Sequence record: MT446387.1
DNA: 64,000 nt
Direction: 5' to 3' (one strand)
DNA from: Escherichia phage TH09
In this document: positions 4,571-31,038 of the stretch, piece by piece
Numbering within the stretch: position 1 is the first letter of the stretch
Layout of the letters: every line of letters starts with the position of its first letter
Translations under genes and position numbers: made by a program
The notes under the pieces: generated by a model
What the model was told of the DNA's origin: nothing
Databases searched by the model: none
Seen by the model: only the letters and a program-made list of their open reading frames with translations

Positions 4571-5226
4571 GCTGTTCTCTCAAAATGATAAAGTACTATT
4601 GGAGTTTGCTGATTATCTAAAGTTACAGTTTGTGCACCAAGCAAATTCCATGTGCCATATCCAGGCTTAGATTCTGAAATAATTTCTTGGGAAATAGTTA
4701 TTCCATATGTGGAATATGTGCTTAATACATGTTTCTGATTATCTAAATAAGTAACTTCTAATTTACTACCATCGGTTGGATGGTCTTTATATGAATTGAT
4801 AGCAGTAAATGACGCAATAGCTTCTTGCAGCGCAACACGAACTTTGGCGACAAACTCAATAGCTGTCATTCCGGTTGTTGCTGAAACTGGAAGACCGAAT
4901 ACTAATACAGTAACAGGAGAACCAGGAGGAAGCGAATCATCTGTTACAGTTCCCGAAAACGCCCAATAATCAGTTTGAGAAACACCCTCAGGAGAAACAC
5001 CAGTTTTATTAGTAATAATTGTACCAACGTCTTTTATAGAAAAATTATGAACATCATTAATAGCTGATTCTACGTTTGGTTCATAAAATCCTTTCGCTAG
5101 TTGAGAAATTGTCACTGACCCAACTGATTGACGATTCATTACATCGATGTCGCCAGTTTTAGGTCTAAAACCAAGAAAATCGGCTAAGCGGGAAATAACT
5201 CCCGCTTTATTATTAAGTAAACTCAT
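4567..5226 (-). CDS. 11: baseplate wedge protein gp11 (short tail fiber attachment)
   Basis: ORF track gives 225 aa from an upstream ATG; ATG at 5226 (MSLLNNK...) gives 219 aa as in T4 and overlaps gene 10 stop (TAATG). Confidence 0.85.
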
Positions 5227-19181: not shown

Positions 19182-19894
19182 ATGAAACTAATCTTTTTAA
19201 GTGGTGTAAAGCGTAGTGGAAAAGATACTACTGCTGATTTTATCATGAGCAATTATTCTGCAGTTAAATATCAACTTGCTGGTCCTATTAAGGATGCATT
19301 GGCTTATGCATGGGGTGTATTTGCAGCAAACACTGACTATCCTTGTTTAACTCGTAAAGAGTTTGAAGGAATTGACTATGATCGTGAAACTAATTTAAAT
19401 CTGACTAAATTAGAAGTAATTACGATTATGGAACAAGCATTTTGCTATCTTAATAGTAAAAGCCCAATTAAAGGTGTGTTTGTTTTTGATGACGCAGTTA
19501 ATTTCGTAGCATTTAACAAGATTGCTGACGTTATAAATAATATTGAAGATCAATGGTCAGTCCGTCGTCTGATGCAAGCCCTAGGTACGGATTTGATTGT
19601 TAATAACTTCGACCGCATGTATTGGGTAAAATTATTTGCTTTAGATTATCTTGATAAATTTAACTCAGGTTATGATTATTATATCGTTCCTGATACTCGT
19701 CAAGATCATGAAATGGATGCGGCTAGGGCGATGGGTGCTACAGTAATTCATGTAGTTCGTCCTGGTCAAAAATCCAATGATACTCATATTACAGAAGCTG
19801 GATTGCCAATTCGTGATGGCGATTTAGTAATTACAAACGATGGTTCTCTTGAAGAACTTTTTTCTAAAATTAAAAATACACTAAAGGTACTATA

Positions 19895-19895
<1 letters not shown>
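19182..19895 (+). CDS. 1: deoxynucleoside monophosphate kinase gp1
   Basis: 237-aa ORF with P-loop GVKRSGKDT; position after gene 3. Confidence 0.9.
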
Positions 19896-20592
<697 letters not shown>

Positions 20593-20604
20593 TTTCACAA
20601 AGTT

Positions 20605-20634
20605 GTTTACACGCTGATGAGGTAGTGATACTAT
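20605..20634 (+). promoter_or_regulatory. T4-type early promoter
   Basis: GTTTAC (20605-20610), 18-nt spacer, TGA-TACTAT (20629-20634); upstream tttcacaaagtt element. Confidence 0.55.
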
Positions 20635-20664
20635 TATCTCATCAAAATTAATTAGGAAAATAAA

Positions 20665-20922
20665 ATGAAAACTTTCAAAGAGTTTGCTACAAAAACTACT
20701 ATCACCGAATCTTCCCACGGTATGGAAGTAAAGCTTGGAATGGCTTTAGCTGAAGCTGAGCGTCTTTTCTCTCGTATTAAAGAACTTGCTGCTGCAGTCG
20801 ATCCTTCATCTTTTAAAGGAGACCAAACTAAAGTTAAAGCGCTTTTAGCATTATGCTCAGATGCAGGAGAAATTGCTAAAAATGGTTCTAAGATGAAGAA
20901 ACGATTAGAAGATTTAAAATAA
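20665..20922 (+). CDS. small internal-protein-like protein with capsid targeting sequence
   Basis: 85 aa; N-terminus MKTFKEFATKTTITE|S resembles the T4 IP capsid targeting sequence with an (L/I)xE prohead-protease site; at the ipI position after 57B. Confidence 0.65.
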   Translation: MKTFKEFATKTTITESSHGMEVKLGMALAEAERLFSRIKELAAAVDPSSFKGDQTKVKALLALCSDAGEIAKNGSKMKKRLEDLK

Positions 20923-20934
20923 TTTCACAAAGTT

Positions 20935-20964
20935 GTTTACACAGGGTTTTAGTAGTGATACTAT
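20935..20964 (+). promoter_or_regulatory. T4-type early promoter (duplicate of 20605 cassette)
   Basis: Exact repeat gatttaaaataatttcacaaagttGTTTACac of the preceding cassette; -10 TACTAT at 20959-20964. Confidence 0.55.
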
Positions 20965-20998
20965 TACTCTATCAAAACAAAACCAAATGGAAATCAAA

Positions 20999-21232
20999 AT
21001 GAAAACTTTCAAAGAGTTTATCGCTGAATCTTCTGATGTAAAAGTTGAGTTTATTTACACCGGCAAGAAAGATAAAATGGGTGAAATGCCTCATGGAGTT
21101 CTTCGTGATGCATTAGATAATTTCGGTCAACTCGCCGCAGAAGATTACGGTGATAAAATTGTTGTTACTGGTCCTGCTGCAGTTATTGAAAAATGGGCAG
21201 CAGAAAATAAATCAATTTTTCGTAAAAAATAA
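20999..21232 (+). CDS. small internal-protein-like protein with capsid targeting sequence
   Basis: ATG at 20999 gives 77 aa starting MKTFKEFIAE|SSDVK (track starts upstream at 20933). Confidence 0.6.
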   Translation: MKTFKEFIAESSDVKVEFIYTGKKDKMGEMPHGVLRDALDNFGQLAAEDYGDKIVVTGPAAVIEKWAAENKSIFRKK

Positions 21233-21262
21233 GTTTACTTTTAGATAGGGTAGTGATACTAT
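21233..21262 (+). promoter_or_regulatory. T4-type early promoter
   Basis: GTTTAC (21233-21238), 18-nt spacer, TGA-TACTAT (21257-21262), flanked by inverted repeat gataggg/ccctatc. Confidence 0.5.
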
Positions 21263-21290
21263 TACCCTATCAACTACCGAGGAGAATAAA

Positions 21291-21476
21291 ATGAAACGTT
21301 GTGAATTAATTCGAAATGTTGCTATTGCAATTTCTGCTTCTGCTTTTAGTTTTTCAATGTTTGTTGGATTTATATGCGGATTATTGACTACAGCAGAAAA
21401 TGTGTTTTCGCTTGTAGTAGCATTTTTAATTGGTTTAATCGCTATCGTTATGGATAAAATTTCTAAAGGTGAATAG
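21291..21476 (+). CDS. small hydrophobic membrane protein
   Basis: 61-aa ORF with two predicted TM helices; GAGGAG SD. Confidence 0.55.
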   Translation: MKRCELIRNVAIAISASAFSFSMFVGFICGLLTTAENVFSLVVAFLIGLIAIVMDKISKGE

Positions 21477-21477
21477 A

Positions 21478-21858
21478 ATGTATAAAGTGTACGCGGATTA
21501 TCAGGCTAATCCATCTGAAAAGCCAGATTGCCAAATTGGATGGGCTCATGATACCCTGCTTGAAGCAGTAGATGCTGCTCAAAAATTAGGATATAGTTAT
21601 GTAGATATTGTTCAACCTGGCGGAACAGTTATTACTCTTGAAGAGTTTAATAATATTAAACCAAACTTTTTACTTTTTGCAGGTGATAATTATTATCCTC
21701 GCGGTGGATATGCTGATTTAATCGCTAAAGCCGCTACCGAAGATGAACTCCGTGACATTATCAAAGAAAATGAAAACAAACCAATGTATGGTTTTAATCG
21801 CTTTGATTGGTGGCAAATTGTAAATGCCCACACTCATACTATTGTTGATGAAGGGTAA
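21478..21858 (+). CDS. hypothetical protein
   Basis: ATG at 21478 (MYKVYADYQ...) with AAGGTG SD; track ORF begins at GTG 21469; about 126 aa. Confidence 0.55.
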   Translation: MYKVYADYQANPSEKPDCQIGWAHDTLLEAVDAAQKLGYSYVDIVQPGGTVITLEEFNNIKPNFLLFAGDNYYPRGGYADLIAKAATEDELRDIIKENENKPMYGFNRFDWWQIVNAHTHTIVDEG

Positions 21859-21861
21859 ATA

Positions 21862-22155
21862 ATGATTCTTTATGCTAAAGTATCATCCATTGAAAATGGA
21901 TATAAATATGATCAAGACGCGGCTAAAGCCTTGATTGATGATTATGGCGTTTTAACATGTTTTGAAGTTGAAAAGGTTTATATTGACCGTTCATCTTCTC
22001 AAGTTAAATTATTGAAGGAAGACTGTAAATTTAATACAGTAAATTTTGATTTCTTTATTGAAACAGAAAAAGGTCCTCTTGAATATGATATTTTCAAGAA
22101 TCCTTTGGGTCTTGAATGTATTGAATATACTTACATTAATATGGTGAGTAAATGA
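21862..22155 (+). CDS. hypothetical protein
   Basis: 97-aa ORF, tightly packed with neighbours. Confidence 0.5.
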   Translation: MILYAKVSSIENGYKYDQDAAKALIDDYGVLTCFEVEKVYIDRSSSQVKLLKEDCKFNTVNFDFFIETEKGPLEYDIFKNPLGLECIEYTYINMVSK

Positions 22156-22667
22156 ATATTTGTTTAGGTACTACAATTCCACAGGGTTACGTAATTGATG
22201 TCACTACCTGGGAAAATGATGGTGACAACTATAAAACTAAAACACTGTTTGGCGTAGAAGAGCATGAAATCTTACAATTCCAATATCTTTTAAAGAAGTT
22301 TAAAAGCAGACATTCTAGTACTAAAGCTGAACGTTATTGTGGTAATGGCTTGTTCAGCGAGCAATCGCTTTTTATTTATGAATACTTGGTTGAAGGACTG
22401 TTCTCAGAACAACTTTATCCAGAATTCATTAAAAAGGTCTTTGATATAGAAGTTGACCTTGGTAATAAATCCGAAGAAGACGAAGAACGTGTATTTGACT
22501 TATTCTTTGTGAATGGTAATAAAGTGCTTGAAGGACTTATTAATATTTTAGGCAGTGCTTCTGAGTATTATGATTATGATTTTTTGCGTGTAGTTGAGAG
22601 TGTTAAATACTCTTATATAGAAGAAGAAATTGTTTTGCCGACCGTTAAAATGTTTAATTTGCTTTAA
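22152..22667 (+). CDS. hypothetical acidic protein
   Basis: 171-aa ORF with ATGA overlap to the upstream gene; no recognisable motif. Confidence 0.55.
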   Translation: MNICLGTTIPQGYVIDVTTWENDGDNYKTKTLFGVEEHEILQFQYLLKKFKSRHSSTKAERYCGNGLFSEQSLFIYEYLVEGLFSEQLYPEFIKKVFDIEVDLGNKSEEDEERVFDLFFVNGNKVLEGLINILGSASEYYDYDFLRVVESVKYSYIEEEIVLPTVKMFNLL

Positions 22668-22753
22668 GAATTATTTGTTATTATTAACTCATGCCGCACT
22701 GATTAATACCCTCTATCATCAAGGGTTCTTATTTGAGAGCCTTTGTTAATAAT

Positions 22754-22826
22754 TGGGAATTAGCCAAGTTGGTAAGGCACTGGATTTTGATTCCAGGATG
22801 CAAAGGTTCGAGTCCTTTATTCCCAG
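22754..22826 (+). tRNA. tRNA-Gln (anticodon UUG), no encoded CCA
   Basis: Manual fold: acceptor tgggaat/attccca, anticodon arm ctgga-ttTTGat-tccag, T-loop ggttcgagtcc. Confidence 0.8.
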
Positions 22827-22827
22827 C

Positions 22828-22914
22828 GCGAGAATGGTCAAATTGGTAAAGGCACAGCACTTAAAATGCTGCGGAATGATTTCCTTGTGGGTTCGAGTCC
22901 CACTTCTCGCACCA
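22828..22914 (+). tRNA. tRNA-Leu (anticodon UAA), long variable arm, CCA encoded
   Basis: Acceptor gcgagaa/ttctcgc, anticodon arm cagca-ctTAAaa-tgctg, T-loop ggttcgagtcc, 3' ACCA. Confidence 0.8.
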
Positions 22915-22919
22915 AATTT

Positions 22920-22993
<74 letters not shown>

Positions 22994-23003
22994 ATTTAAT
23001 TTA

Positions 23004-23077
23004 CTCCGTGTAGCTCAGTTTGGTAGAGCGCCTGATTTGGGATCAGGAGGTCCAAGGTTCAAATCCTTGTATGGAGA
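23004..23077 (+). tRNA. tRNA-Pro (anticodon UGG), no encoded CCA
   Basis: Acceptor ctccgtg/tatggag, anticodon arm cctga-ttTGGga-tcagg; 2 nt before tRNA-Ser (dimeric-precursor arrangement known in T4). Confidence 0.78.
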
Positions 23078-23079
23078 CT

Positions 23080-23169
23080 GGAGGCGTGGCAGAGTGGTTT
23101 AATGCACCGGTCTTGAAAACCGGCAGTCGCTCCGGCGACTCATAGGTTCAAATCCTATCGCCTCCGCCA
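23080..23169 (+). tRNA. tRNA-Ser (anticodon UGA), long variable arm, CCA encoded
   Basis: Acceptor ggaggcg/cgcctcc, anticodon arm ccggt-ctTGAaa-accgg, T-loop ggttcaaatcc. Confidence 0.8.
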
Positions 23170-23174
23170 GTTTT

Positions 23175-23250
23175 GCTGATTTAGCTCAGTAGGTAGAGCA
23201 ACTCACTTGTAATGAGAAGGTCGGCGGTTCGATTCCGTCAATCAGCACCA
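23175..23250 (+). tRNA. tRNA-Thr (anticodon UGU), CCA encoded
   Basis: Acceptor gctgatt/aatcagc, anticodon loop ctTGTaa, T-loop ggttcgattcc. Confidence 0.78.
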
Positions 23251-23251
23251 A

Positions 23252-23326
23252 GGCCCTGTAGCTGGAAGGTTCAAGCAAGCGACTCATAATCGCCAGATGG
23301 TGGTTCAATTCCACCCAGGGCCACCA
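23252..23326 (+). tRNA. tRNA with anticodon CAU (Ile2/Met-type; T4 tRNA-Ile position)
   Basis: Acceptor ggccctg/cagggcc, anticodon loop ctCATaa, T-loop ggttcaattcc, 3' ACCA. Confidence 0.75.
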
Positions 23327-23339
23327 AATTAAGAATTAA

Positions 23340-23426
23340 GGGGAGTTATCCCGTAGAGGTAGCGGTGTGGACTGTAAATCCATTGTCATTGCGACTCGGG
23401 TGGTTCGACTCCATCACTCCCCACCA
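23340..23426 (+). tRNA. tRNA-Tyr-like (anticodon GUA), long variable arm
   Basis: Acceptor ggggagt/actcccc, anticodon arm gtgga-ctGTAaa-tccat, 15-nt variable arm, T-arm ggtgg-ttcgact-ccatc, 3' ACCA; not in the canonical 8-tRNA T4 set (memory). Confidence 0.65.
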
Positions 23427-23430
23427 ATTT

Positions 23431-23505
23431 GGATGTGTAGCTCAATGGCAGAGCGATCGCCTGTTAAGCGATTGGTTATAGGTTCGAATCCTATCACGTC
23501 CGCCA
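23431..23505 (+). tRNA. tRNA-Asn-like (anticodon GUU)
   Basis: Acceptor ggatgtg/cacgtcc (one G-U), anticodon arm atcgc-ctGTTaa-gcgat, T-loop ggttcgaatcc, 3' GCCA. Confidence 0.65.
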
Positions 23506-23509
23506 AATA

Positions 23510-23585
23510 CGAGGCATAGCTCAGAAGGAAGAGCAAGGACCTTCTAAGTCCTGGGTCGTAGGTTCGATCCCTACTGCCTCGACCA
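23510..23585 (+). tRNA. tRNA-Arg (anticodon UCU)
   Basis: Acceptor cgaggca/tgcctcg, anticodon arm aggac-ctTCTaa-gtcct, T-loop ggttcgatccc, 3' ACCA. Confidence 0.78.
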
Positions 23586-23930: not shown

Positions 23931-23938
23931 TATAAATA
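23931..23938 (+). promoter_or_regulatory. late promoter TATAAATA
   Basis: TATAAATA immediately after the terminator, 40 nt upstream of the capsid-targeted ORF at 23979. Confidence 0.65.
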
Positions 23939-23978: not shown

Positions 23979-24452
23979 ATGAAATCATATGCTCAATTTT
24001 TAAATGAAGCGGTGTTAAATGAAGCATCTAGCACCGAAATTCAAGCTGTCGCAAAAGCTGCCATTGCCGCGGGTAAATATTCCTATAAAGATGCTTCCGA
24101 TGAATCACGATTCCAATTTGCTCGTGATATGAAAGCCGAAGGATTTACAGGGAATGCAGTTAGTATGGCTTGGAAAAGTTTAGTTGCTACTGGAGCTGCT
24201 TTTGCAAAGGCTTCAGGTAAACCTGCTCCTAAAGCAGATCCTAAAGTCGCACAAGAGAAAAATATTGTTAAAGGAATTATCTCCAAATATGAAGCTATCC
24301 TTAAAGAGCTTTTAGTAATTAAAACTGAAGGCCAAAAGCTAGCTCGTGCTTATAGTTTCAAAGATAACCCACATGTTCACTCTCTTGAATATGTTGAAGA
24401 CATCCAAAAAATTATTAAAGACCGCATTTGGTCTGCTAAACAAATCAAATAA
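23979..24452 (+). CDS. internal-protein-like capsid-targeted protein
   Basis: 157 aa; N-terminus MKSYAQFLNE|A matches the CTS pattern MKTYxEFxxE|A; Ala/Lys-rich; AGGAAA SD; late promoter upstream. Confidence 0.7.
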   Translation: MKSYAQFLNEAVLNEASSTEIQAVAKAAIAAGKYSYKDASDESRFQFARDMKAEGFTGNAVSMAWKSLVATGAAFAKASGKPAPKADPKVAQEKNIVKGIISKYEAILKELLVIKTEGQKLARAYSFKDNPHVHSLEYVEDIQKIIKDRIWSAKQIK

Positions 24453-24570: not shown

Positions 24571-25134
24571 ATGAAAACCTACGCCGAATTTTTAACCGAA
24601 GCAGCAAAATTACCATCTGAAGCAGATCTTACTAAAGTATTCTTCCACTTGGACCCAAAAGACCGTGGCGATTTTCTTAAGTGGAAAGCTAAAGCTATTG
24701 AAATGTACAACATCGATAATAGTTCTTTTACAATGAGTCAAGAAAATAAATTCAATAAAGCATTTTTCAAAATTTCTAAGAAATTGGCATCTGGCGCTCA
24801 GGTTCCTAAATCTGCATTAGCTACTCCTGAACGCGCACCTGTTAAAATTTCTAAGAATATGTTCGACACTAAAAAATACGTTAATGCTTTGAATAAAGCT
24901 CTTGATGCATTGGATGATGCAAAGAAGGCAGCCCGTGATCTTCAAGACGTGTACACCGATTTTGATCGTAAAACTAAAGGTTCTATTTCAAATAGCGAAC
25001 GCAATAGTGTAAGTGTTTATTCTGATAGCCTTGACGTTCTTGGCGATGCGTATACTGAAATTAAAAATCGTATTAACACTGCATCTAAGCTAAAAGCTGC
25101 CGCAGAAGCTATAATAACTAAACTAGATAAATAA
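24571..25134 (+). CDS. internal-protein-like capsid-targeted protein
   Basis: 187 aa; N-terminus MKTYAEFLTE|AAK; basic Lys/Ala-rich; size close to T4 IPIII (about 194 aa, memory). Confidence 0.7.
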   Translation: MKTYAEFLTEAAKLPSEADLTKVFFHLDPKDRGDFLKWKAKAIEMYNIDNSSFTMSQENKFNKAFFKISKKLASGAQVPKSALATPERAPVKISKNMFDTKKYVNALNKALDALDDAKKAARDLQDVYTDFDRKTKGSISNSERNSVSVYSDSLDVLGDAYTEIKNRINTASKLKAAAEAIITKLDK

Positions 25135-30564: not shown

Positions 30565-31038
30565 ATGAAAACATATCAAGAATTTATCACTGAAGCAGCT
30601 ATTAATTCTCAAATTATTGCTGAATCTTTTACTGATCTTTTGAAATTTAAAAAAGGTCAAAAAATCACTGCTGTATTGGATGATGGTACAGAAGTTGAGA
30701 TGGATGTACAGGGATATAATTATGCAGTAGATGGAAAATTGTATAATAAATCTCATGCTAAATTTGATTCATTTGACGACTTTGTTAATACAGTTGAAGA
30801 TGAAAAAACTCGTCGATCCATTGCAACTGGTGATGCTAAGGTTCTTATGGCACATGGTCATGAACGCATTCGCGCTAAACAGAATAAAATGGGCGAAGAT
30901 AATTTCGCATTAGTTGGTTATCAATCTGGTAAACAAACTTATGGTTATCAACGTACTGCTACCATGTATAATAAAAATGGTAAAATTGCCTTTGTGAATA
31001 GTAAAGGTTCTATTCAGTACGTTAAATCGTTCAAATAA
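30565..31038 (+). CDS. internal-protein-like capsid-targeted protein
   Basis: 157 aa; N-terminus MKTYQEFITE|AA is the canonical CTS decapeptide with LxE|A site; remainder unlike T4 IPII/IPIII as far as I can recall. Confidence 0.7.
   Translation: MKTYQEFITEAAINSQIIAESFTDLLKFKKGQKITAVLDDGTEVEMDVQGYNYAVDGKLYNKSHAKFDSFDDFVNTVEDEKTRRSIATGDAKVLMAHGHERIRAKQNKMGEDNFALVGYQSGKQTYGYQRTATMYNKNGKIAFVNSKGSIQYVKSFK

Follow-up and report, generated by a model that had tools for sequence, protein, structure and literature searches.

A probable ipI-type internal-protein locus with ip5 and ip6 cassettes between promoter-hairpin elements in Escherichia phage TH09

The internal-protein (IP) loci of T4-type phages are well described. 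Repoila et al. (1994) are credited with the conserved capsid-targeting leader and at least 10 ip genes (Rao and Black, 2010; Silas et al., 2025), while later papers attribute the flanking promoter/stem-loop elements and the idea of shuffling to the same work (Arbiol et al., 2010; Comeau et al., 2014). The elements of the T-even IP loci are considered to be based on T4 early promoters and to carry weaker, AT-rich stem-loops, a possible cause of the loci's plasticity (Arbiol et al., 2010; repeated in Comeau et al., 2014). The capsid-targeting sequence comprises the first 10 residues of IPIII (MKTYQEFIAE), of which residues 4 and 7 serve targeting and residues 8 and 10 processing, and the prohead protease gp21 cleaves after L/I-x-E (T4 literature). 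Furthermore, each of the proteins Ip1, Ip2, and Ip3 blocks a GmrSD type IV restriction enzyme of its own, and the three share no homology past the leader (Silas et al., 2025). Here we analyze a locus of this kind in a 64,000-nucleotide (nt) stretch of Escherichia phage TH09 (MT446387.1), hereafter the window, which is a segment of a T4-like (Tequatrovirus) genome. In our judgment it is very probably the ipI-type locus of a T6/GiZh-like Tequatrovirus with the named cassettes ip5 and ip6, whose products would be packaged, processed, and injected and whose cassettes would be shuffled by recombination. As far as the 1994 work is reflected in these sources, the locus is already known together with its genes and leader, as are its promoter/inverted-repeat flanks and the hypothesis of shuffling, and the question of what Ip5 and Ip6 target is likewise not new here.

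Two conserved genes anchor the locus, 57B on the left and tRNA.4 on the right, and the internal-protein genes stand between them:

20137-20592, + strand: 57B, encoding Acb1, a nuclease of the 2H-phosphoesterase type directed against the cyclic-oligonucleotide-based antiphage signaling system (anti-CBASS); full-length match to Pfam PF23474 (E-value 2.7e-60), gp57B in the GiZh annotation
20665-20922, + strand: ip5 (ipV), 85 amino acids (aa), starting MKTFKEFATKTTITESS, directly 3' of 57B
20999-21232, + strand: ip6 (ipVI), 77 aa, starting MKTFKEFIAESS; phrog_8111 (E-value 3.3e-51), annotated as ip6/ipVI in GiZh, VR7, VR20, and fFiEco06
21291-21476, + strand: tRNA.4, a predicted membrane protein of 61 aa according to the GiZh and T4 annotation; phrog_1692

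An original prediction, made from the DNA letters alone, had already pointed to two small open reading frames (ORFs) of 85 and 77 aa after 57B, and both were found. Their N-termini resemble those of T4 internal proteins. The leader pattern MK[TS][FY]x[ED]F starts four ORFs in the window, all on the + strand, and a fifth ORF has a looser version. Ip5 (MKTFKEF...) and Ip6 (MKTFKEFIAE) both possess the aromatic residues F4 and F7 that define targeting. The leader of Ip6, MKTFKEFIAE followed by S, fits the gp21 rule directly through its site I8-A9-E10. The leader of Ip5, MKTFKEFATKTTITE followed by S, contains no site at positions 8-10 and has I13-T14-E15 instead. Throughout the Ip5 family I13-T14-E15 and the subsequent SSHG are invariant, with the remaining leader being variable and one variant being five residues shorter. 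A direct precedent for a cut after this ITE is provided by T4 IPI, which reads MKTFKEFTSTTTPVSTITE followed by A, with ITE at 17-19: cleavage there leaves 95-19 = 76 aa, which equals the published length of IPI* (Rao and Black, 2010). Judged from the leaders, gp21 sites are present in Ip5 (after E15) and in Ip6 (after E10), and the predicted match to the T4 leader with an (L/I)xE protease site holds under the defined rules, given F4/F7, IAE, and ITE. Leader, gp21 site, and position in the IP locus all place both proteins, at the sequence level, among the T4-type internal proteins. The start of ip6 is annotated ambiguously. Our ORF list contains a 99-aa version with a TTG start (20933-21232), the database entry P0007 starts with MEIKM four codons upstream (20987, 81 aa), and the entries P0006 and P0008 have 98 aa; the ATG at 20999 is the only start that makes the conserved targeting leader N-terminal.

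Ip5 matches CAA84462.1, the Ip5 record of RB15, at 100% identity, and proteins annotated as Ip6 share 73-95% identity with the Ip6 found here. Intact homologues occur in 496 phage records for Ip5 and in 246 for Ip6, full-length ones reaching down to 47% and 72% identity, respectively. The ratio of non-synonymous to synonymous substitution rates (dN/dS) is 0.05 for ip5 and 0.34 for ip6, and a properly spaced Shine-Dalgarno site precedes each gene. That the ORFs are kept as coding sequence in related phages, on which the original prediction depended, is thus borne out. The predicted mature Ip5* comprises 70 aa (7.5 kDa, isoelectric point (pI) 9.2) and was modeled by AlphaFold2 (AF2) as a two-helix hairpin with a predicted local distance difference test score (pLDDT) of 71, and the predicted mature Ip6* comprises 67 aa (7.4 kDa, pI 6.5), with a ferredoxin-like beta-alpha-beta-beta-alpha-beta model (pLDDT 81). 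A structure search with the Ip6 model gave generic ferredoxin-like matches only. Neither protein has a Pfam or NCBIfam family or a sequence match in the PDB, and their PHROG assignments read merely 'internal head/virion protein'. A word-index search of 5.8 billion sequences yielded 5 and 11 clusters for Ip5 and Ip6, respectively, and for Ip6, 1.84 billion representatives searched with a full profile yielded 7 matches. Ip5 and Ip6 are narrow families without an informative homologue or fold. If compared to T4 IPI, similarity is limited to the leader while the cargo is unrelated, as had been anticipated. Since Ip1-3 are themselves unrelated to each other outside the leader, the missing kinship to IPI, the known inhibitor compared here, is not class-defining.

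Besides the leader, the DNA around each cargo is repeated, and the following elements were delineated:

20581-20612, + strand: 32-nt repeat, copy 1 (exact match), covering the end of 57B, an AT-rich stretch, and the -35 box
20605-20634, + strand: T4-early-type promoter 1, with -35 box GTTTAC/TTTACA, a 17-nt spacer, and a TG-extended -10 box TACTAT (20629-20634)
20615-20644, + strand: hairpin 1, with a 13-bp stem and a 4-nt loop; free energy (dG) -14.8 kcal/mol, z -3.75, none of 200 shuffles as stable
20911-20942, + strand: 32-nt repeat, copy 2 (exact match), covering the end of ip5, an AT-rich stretch, and the -35 box
20935-20964, + strand: T4-early-type promoter 2, TTTACA-17-TACTAT, TG-extended
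20943-20970, + strand: hairpin 2, weaker and interrupted, composed of a type-B left and a type-c right arm (types defined below); dG -12.3 kcal/mol, z -2.71
21233-21262, + strand: T4-early-type promoter 3, TTTACT-17-TACTAT, an exact skeleton match serving tRNA.4 and the downstream genes
21244-21271, + strand: hairpin 3, with a perfect 12-bp stem around the -10 box; dG -16.4 kcal/mol, z -4.07

The 32-mer GATTTAAAATAATTTCACAAAGTTGTTTACAC occurs in two exact copies where none is expected (100 shuffles). It had been proposed as one and the same promoter segment in front of each ORF. This stands insofar as both copies are exact, but the first 15 nt are coding, since they comprise the final four codons and the stop of 57B as well as of ip5, both of which end in DLK-stop, and the true unit is longer. 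It is part of a 71-nt family with three copies (identity 100/83/62%), which is complemented by a 31-nt family comprising the Shine-Dalgarno site plus leader (100/94/68%). Together, both families flank each cargo with approximately 100 bp of homology on either side. The promoter skeleton GTTTAC-N14-GTGATACTATTA is exact at 20605, 20935, and 21233, the last being the predicted third copy of the promoter core. With up to three mismatches it is found nine times in the window, always on the + strand, compared to 0.14 matches expected. The six other matches (25638, 30084, 37374, 42647, 43515, and 53419, all + strand, two to three mismatches) probably represent further early promoters of the T4 type; their occurrence suggests that the invariant core of the elements largely corresponds to the extended -10 consensus. 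A generic sigma-70 scan was not enriched overall (14 found, 12 +/- 3.4 expected); it reported promoters 1 and 2, and promoter 3 fell one match under its cut-off with 8 of 12 consensus positions. Consequently, the promoter call is based on the exact conservation, on the T4-type -35 box GTTTAC with an extended -10 box, and on the literature. The element upstream of T4 ipI is identical to that of promoter 1.

Each -10 box of the three promoter copies sits within a hairpin, whose stems are AT-rich (TGATGAGGTAGTG..., GATAGGGTAGTG...). Transcripts would begin about 7 nt past the -10 box, at approximately 20641 for promoter 1 and 20971 for promoter 2, and would therefore lack the 5' arm, which should restrict hairpin formation to DNA or to transcripts reading through from upstream. 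The hairpins, the overlap with the DLK-stop codons, the identity of 57B as Acb1, the names ip5 and ip6, and the 1994 publication were all absent from the original prediction.

The comparison with other phages, which that prediction had called for, reveals variable cassettes in a conserved slot. In T4, ipI occupies the same position between 57B and tRNA.4, as had been stated, with the same element on both sides. RB15 carries four cassettes at the locus (ip5-ip9-ip7-ip8) and VR20 five, whereas a Klebsiella Jiaodavirus (311F) has one Ip8-like cassette between two promoter-hairpin elements of the same design. We further retrieved 33 IMG/VR loci via the conserved 57B gene, and these comprise 0 to 4 varied leader-bearing ORFs between 57B and a tRNA.4-type gene; in distant genera such ORFs often abut without a spacer. 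Across all phages compared, the slot holds 0 to 5 different leader-bearing ORFs, in support of the proposed tandem array of promoter-cargo cassettes. The 1.34-kb stretch 20137-21480 shares 99.8% identity with JLBYU31, 99.5% with GiZh, 98.7% with Yersinia phage PST, and 98.2% with T6, and it is covered to at least 80% in 236 phage records. The ip5-ip6 pair is the common T6-type arrangement. In 228 records, the interval between denV and the lysozyme gene e harbors a paralogue of Ip5 with about 47% identity, and related cargo is consequently found at both IP loci. We take this e-denV interval to correspond to the site of ipII/ipIII in the T4 map.

At the right edge of the locus, nucleotide conservation across genera is unusually high. 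A 73-nt island (approximately 21250-21322, + strand), comprising from promoter 3 its -10 box and right half and from tRNA.4 the initial codons, is the sole region part that megablast matched in Klebsiella phages (93% identity; 117 Klebsiella-named records in the search).

If the elements themselves are compared, signs of re-assortment become visible. The sample drew 20 elements from the window, RB15, T4, and IMG/VR relatives; all contain the 12-nt core GTGATAyTATTA, and the sequences are related to each other. This core is invariant among them, while three main types can be told apart on its 5' side, namely A (CTGATGAGGTA), B (AGGGTTTTAGTT), and C (TTTTAGATAGGGTA), and three more (a, b, and c) on its 3' side. 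Among the 20 elements, seven of the nine left/right combinations are realized. The cargo contexts shift as well: ip6 follows ip5 here and 57B in the IMG/VR relative L033, and ip7 follows 57B in the relative L032 and ip9 in RB15. Chimeras of the C+a type have broken hairpins with -4 to -8 kcal/mol. All of this, together with a duplication in the relative L013, is predicted by recombination within a conserved block. In L013 (IMG/VR 2706796299, 4660-4760) the spacer between ip9 and ip7 contains GATACTATTACCTCATCAA tandemly doubled at the core and right arm, which looks like the footprint of unequal crossing-over or slippage within the element. The type-B left arm (ATAGGG+TTTTAG) resembles a block swap of type C (TTTTAG+ATAGGG), as seen at 20941-20954 and 21239-21252 in the window and in the RB15/T4 spacers; in type B the pairing segment is shifted by 6 nt, resulting in a larger, interrupted hairpin. 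Pairing within the hairpins appears to be under selection. Observed arm pairs have a mean dG of -13.39 compared to -11.64 +/- 0.64 for re-assorted ones, a value reached in 12 of 5000 permutations, although with related sequences this is no strict probability, and the relative L027 shows a compensatory ATGGGG/CCTCAT change in its arms.

Taken together, a cassette is organized in the order hairpin 3' arm, Shine-Dalgarno site, leader, unrelated cargo, stop, AT-rich stretch, and -35 box, after which come the next hairpin's 5' arm and -10 box. By extension from T4, where these steps have been shown, the N-terminal capsid-targeting sequence of about 10 aa would direct Ip5 and Ip6 into the scaffold core of the prohead, gp21 would cleave after (I/L)-x-E at E15 and E10, respectively, and the mature proteins of about 7.5 kDa would be injected along with the DNA. 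By analogy with Ip1-3, they might then disarm a host defense ahead of any phage gene expression, and an anti-defense role is the most likely function for both. The flanking homology of about 100 bp could allow recombination, between co-infecting phages or between IP loci, to swap, add, or delete cassettes while their expression is kept, as others have proposed earlier.

Several observations weigh against this picture. The original prediction had proposed to challenge the ORFs with restriction and other defense systems. For one enzyme family this was done in a published screen, in which ip4-10 delivered no reproducible interaction with a GmrSD panel (Silas et al., 2025); a GmrSD target of Ip5 and Ip6 is possible. 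We found no proteomic or genetic data on packaging, cleavage, or injection of Ip5 or Ip6 in the literature, where searches by name returned papers on inositol phosphates. No TATAAATA late-promoter motif is present within 19532-21901, while prohead assembly requires the IPs; the objection carries little weight, since the T4 ipI segment examined lacks the motif upstream as well and IPI is nevertheless packaged. The hairpins possess no U-tract and went unscored by a terminator scan, which does not support a reading as intrinsic terminators; they might protect RNA 3' ends, modulate the promoter, or take part in recombination. Finally, a linkage test of the left half of each element with the upstream gene and of the right half with the downstream gene was not significant among the 20 elements (Mann-Whitney p 0.79 and 0.08). 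Either crossovers also take place outside the core, or the elements sampled are too few and not independent of each other, and the re-assortment claim is accordingly qualitative only.

Three other explanations have to be considered in this light. That the two small ORFs are no genes at all, with their leaders being a product of chance or of repeated DNA, might be suspected from their shortness, the lack of a Pfam domain, and the first 21 nt lying within the DNA repeat. Full-length intact homologues in 246 to 496 records, dN/dS values well below 1, folded AF2 models, dedicated PHROG families, and well-placed Shine-Dalgarno sites nevertheless leave next to no room for it, and conservation effectively refutes this reading. 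An improbable, yet less remote explanation accepts Ip5 and Ip6 as packaged proteins but assigns them a structural task, such as scaffold or core filling, charge neutralization or condensation of DNA, or help in head morphogenesis, instead of counter-defense. The basic pI of mature Ip5 would fit, as would the historical view of T4 IPs as basic, DNA-associated proteins with about 300 copies per head, the head-assembly defects of IPIII mutants, and the negative result with the GmrSD panel. However, mature Ip6 is near neutral, and a locus whose 0 to 5 unrelated cargoes are polymorphic for presence/absence and replacement would be unexpected of a structural need. Moreover, all three IPs with an assigned function are specific anti-restriction proteins, and the neighboring 57B is itself a counter-defense gene.

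The remaining explanation concerns the elements and not the proteins, and we regard it as unlikely, if somewhat less so than a structural role. The promoter-hairpins might be expression signals only, with a promoter for the downstream gene and a 3'-end or stability hairpin for the upstream one, and their likeness would then reflect descent and constraint instead of use as a recombination substrate. The match of the core to the extended -10 box of other T4-type early promoters in the window, the apparent selection on arm pairing, and the non-significant linkage of half-elements to their flanking genes are all compatible with this. In contrast, it leaves unexplained why most left/right combinations occur, why one and the same cargo (ip6, ip7) stands behind different left halves and in different neighborhoods, and why chimeric elements with broken hairpins and the tandem duplication in L013 exist. 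Similar elements of RB49/phi1 have been shown experimentally to recombine into mini-circles (Arbiol et al., 2010), and roles in expression and recombination can coexist. We thus prefer the interpretation as an ipI-type locus with shuffled cassettes.

Within this interpretation, one might tentatively go further. Ip5 and/or Ip6 could counter a defense other than GmrSD, and the promoter-hairpin units could also be exchange sites that move cassettes as circles between loci and genera. This idea is based on the negative GmrSD screen, on the missing sequence and fold kinship to IPI, and on the adjacency to acb1, and we consider it speculative and well short of an even chance. If a non-GmrSD target was true, the IP locus would deliver ready-made inhibitors of several defense classes. 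Since injected IPs act before phage gene expression, they help to set the host range of T4-like phages, therapeutic candidates included. With the Ip1-3/GmrSD pairs described in 2025 and the negative screen of ip4-10, Ip5 and Ip6 are obvious candidates for new inhibitor-defense pairs.

Further leader-bearing ORFs of the window lie outside this locus. Two tandem paralogous ORFs on the + strand, 23979-24452 (157 aa) and 24571-25134 (187 aa), both belong to phrog_2280 ('unknown function') and start with leaders that resemble the capsid-targeting sequence and carry L-x-E, namely MKSYAQFLNE and MKTYAEFLTE, each followed by A. Upstream of the first stand a GC-rich hairpin with a T-run and, at 23931, a TATAAATA late-promoter motif. 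The 187-aa protein occurs in 164 phage records and is 'hypothetical' in all listed rows with an annotation. Both ORFs may represent unrecognized internal proteins at a third site just past the tRNA cluster. Opposite 24571-25134, JLBYU31 (OK272473.1, 71000-72600) has a different, shorter gene according to coordinate extrapolation, and the window may be mosaic relative to this nearest sequenced relative. A 157-aa ORF at 30565-31038 (+ strand) with the leader MKTYQEFITE followed by A matches phrog_3155 ('internal virion protein', E-value 6e-102); it corresponds to ipIV/Ip4, which the GiZh annotation places behind e and denV, and this is the second IP locus of the phage. No GTGATACTAT-type element stands upstream of it.

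Upstream, 57B is preceded by two genes:

19182-19895, + strand: gene 1, deoxynucleoside monophosphate (dNMP) kinase
19895-20137, + strand: 57A

The last four codons and the stop of 57B are part of the repeat, and in phage records its product is often still labeled 'RNA ligase', 'phosphodiesterase', or 'hypothetical'. The IP cassettes thereby directly adjoin another counter-defense gene. Downstream, tRNA.4 is followed by two more small genes and then by the phage tRNA cluster (22754-23582, + strand), in which nine tRNA matches exceed the Rfam gathering score and one tRNA-like match (23340-23422) is sub-threshold; the near-identical genome of GiZh annotates ten tRNAs followed by rnaC. An Rfam-type scan found no known RNA families within 20000-22700.

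Arrays of small, unrelated adaptive genes that vary in number and order, with imperfect palindromes between them, are also found in integrons, whose attC hairpins separate the cassettes, yet this is an analogy only. To our knowledge, IP cassettes involve neither an integrase nor an attI site; each comes with its own promoter, and exchange presumably occurs by general homologous recombination.

The closest described system is the IP loci of Repoila et al. (1994) themselves. To the extent that later papers and the GenBank record reflect this source, the locus in TH09 shares with them the 57B-tRNA.4 slot, the ip5 and ip6 genes, the leader, the early promoter of about 70 bp with an overlapping inverted repeat, and the proposed shuffling; within the same limit nothing substantive differs, the arrangement being ip5-ip6 here, in T6, and in GiZh and ip5-ip9-ip7-ip8 in RB15. 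With T4 IPI/IPI*, which inhibits GmrSD of E. coli CT596, it shares the slot and the flanking promoter-hairpin; the leaders of IPI and Ip5 (MKTFKEF...ITE) are close relatives, and the mature sizes are similar, with 76 aa in IPI* compared to 70 in Ip5* and 67 in Ip6*. Similar in design are the promoter early stem-loops (PeSLs) of RB49/phi1, PST/T4, and nt-1/KVP40, which likewise combine a promoter and a stem-loop in the intergenic space flanking small accessory ORFs of hyperplastic regions, and which were proposed to mediate modular shuffling, as shown for RB49/phi1 (Arbiol et al., 2010; Comeau et al., 2014). We found no report in the literature on mini-circle formation by IP elements. Unlike PeSLs, with their sigma-70-like promoter and G/C-rich stems (Gn-loop-Cn, polyG/polyC), the elements described here have AT-rich stems and fall outside that definition. 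This agrees with the view that the IP elements of T-even phages are analogues, not homologues, of PeSLs (Arbiol et al., 2010).

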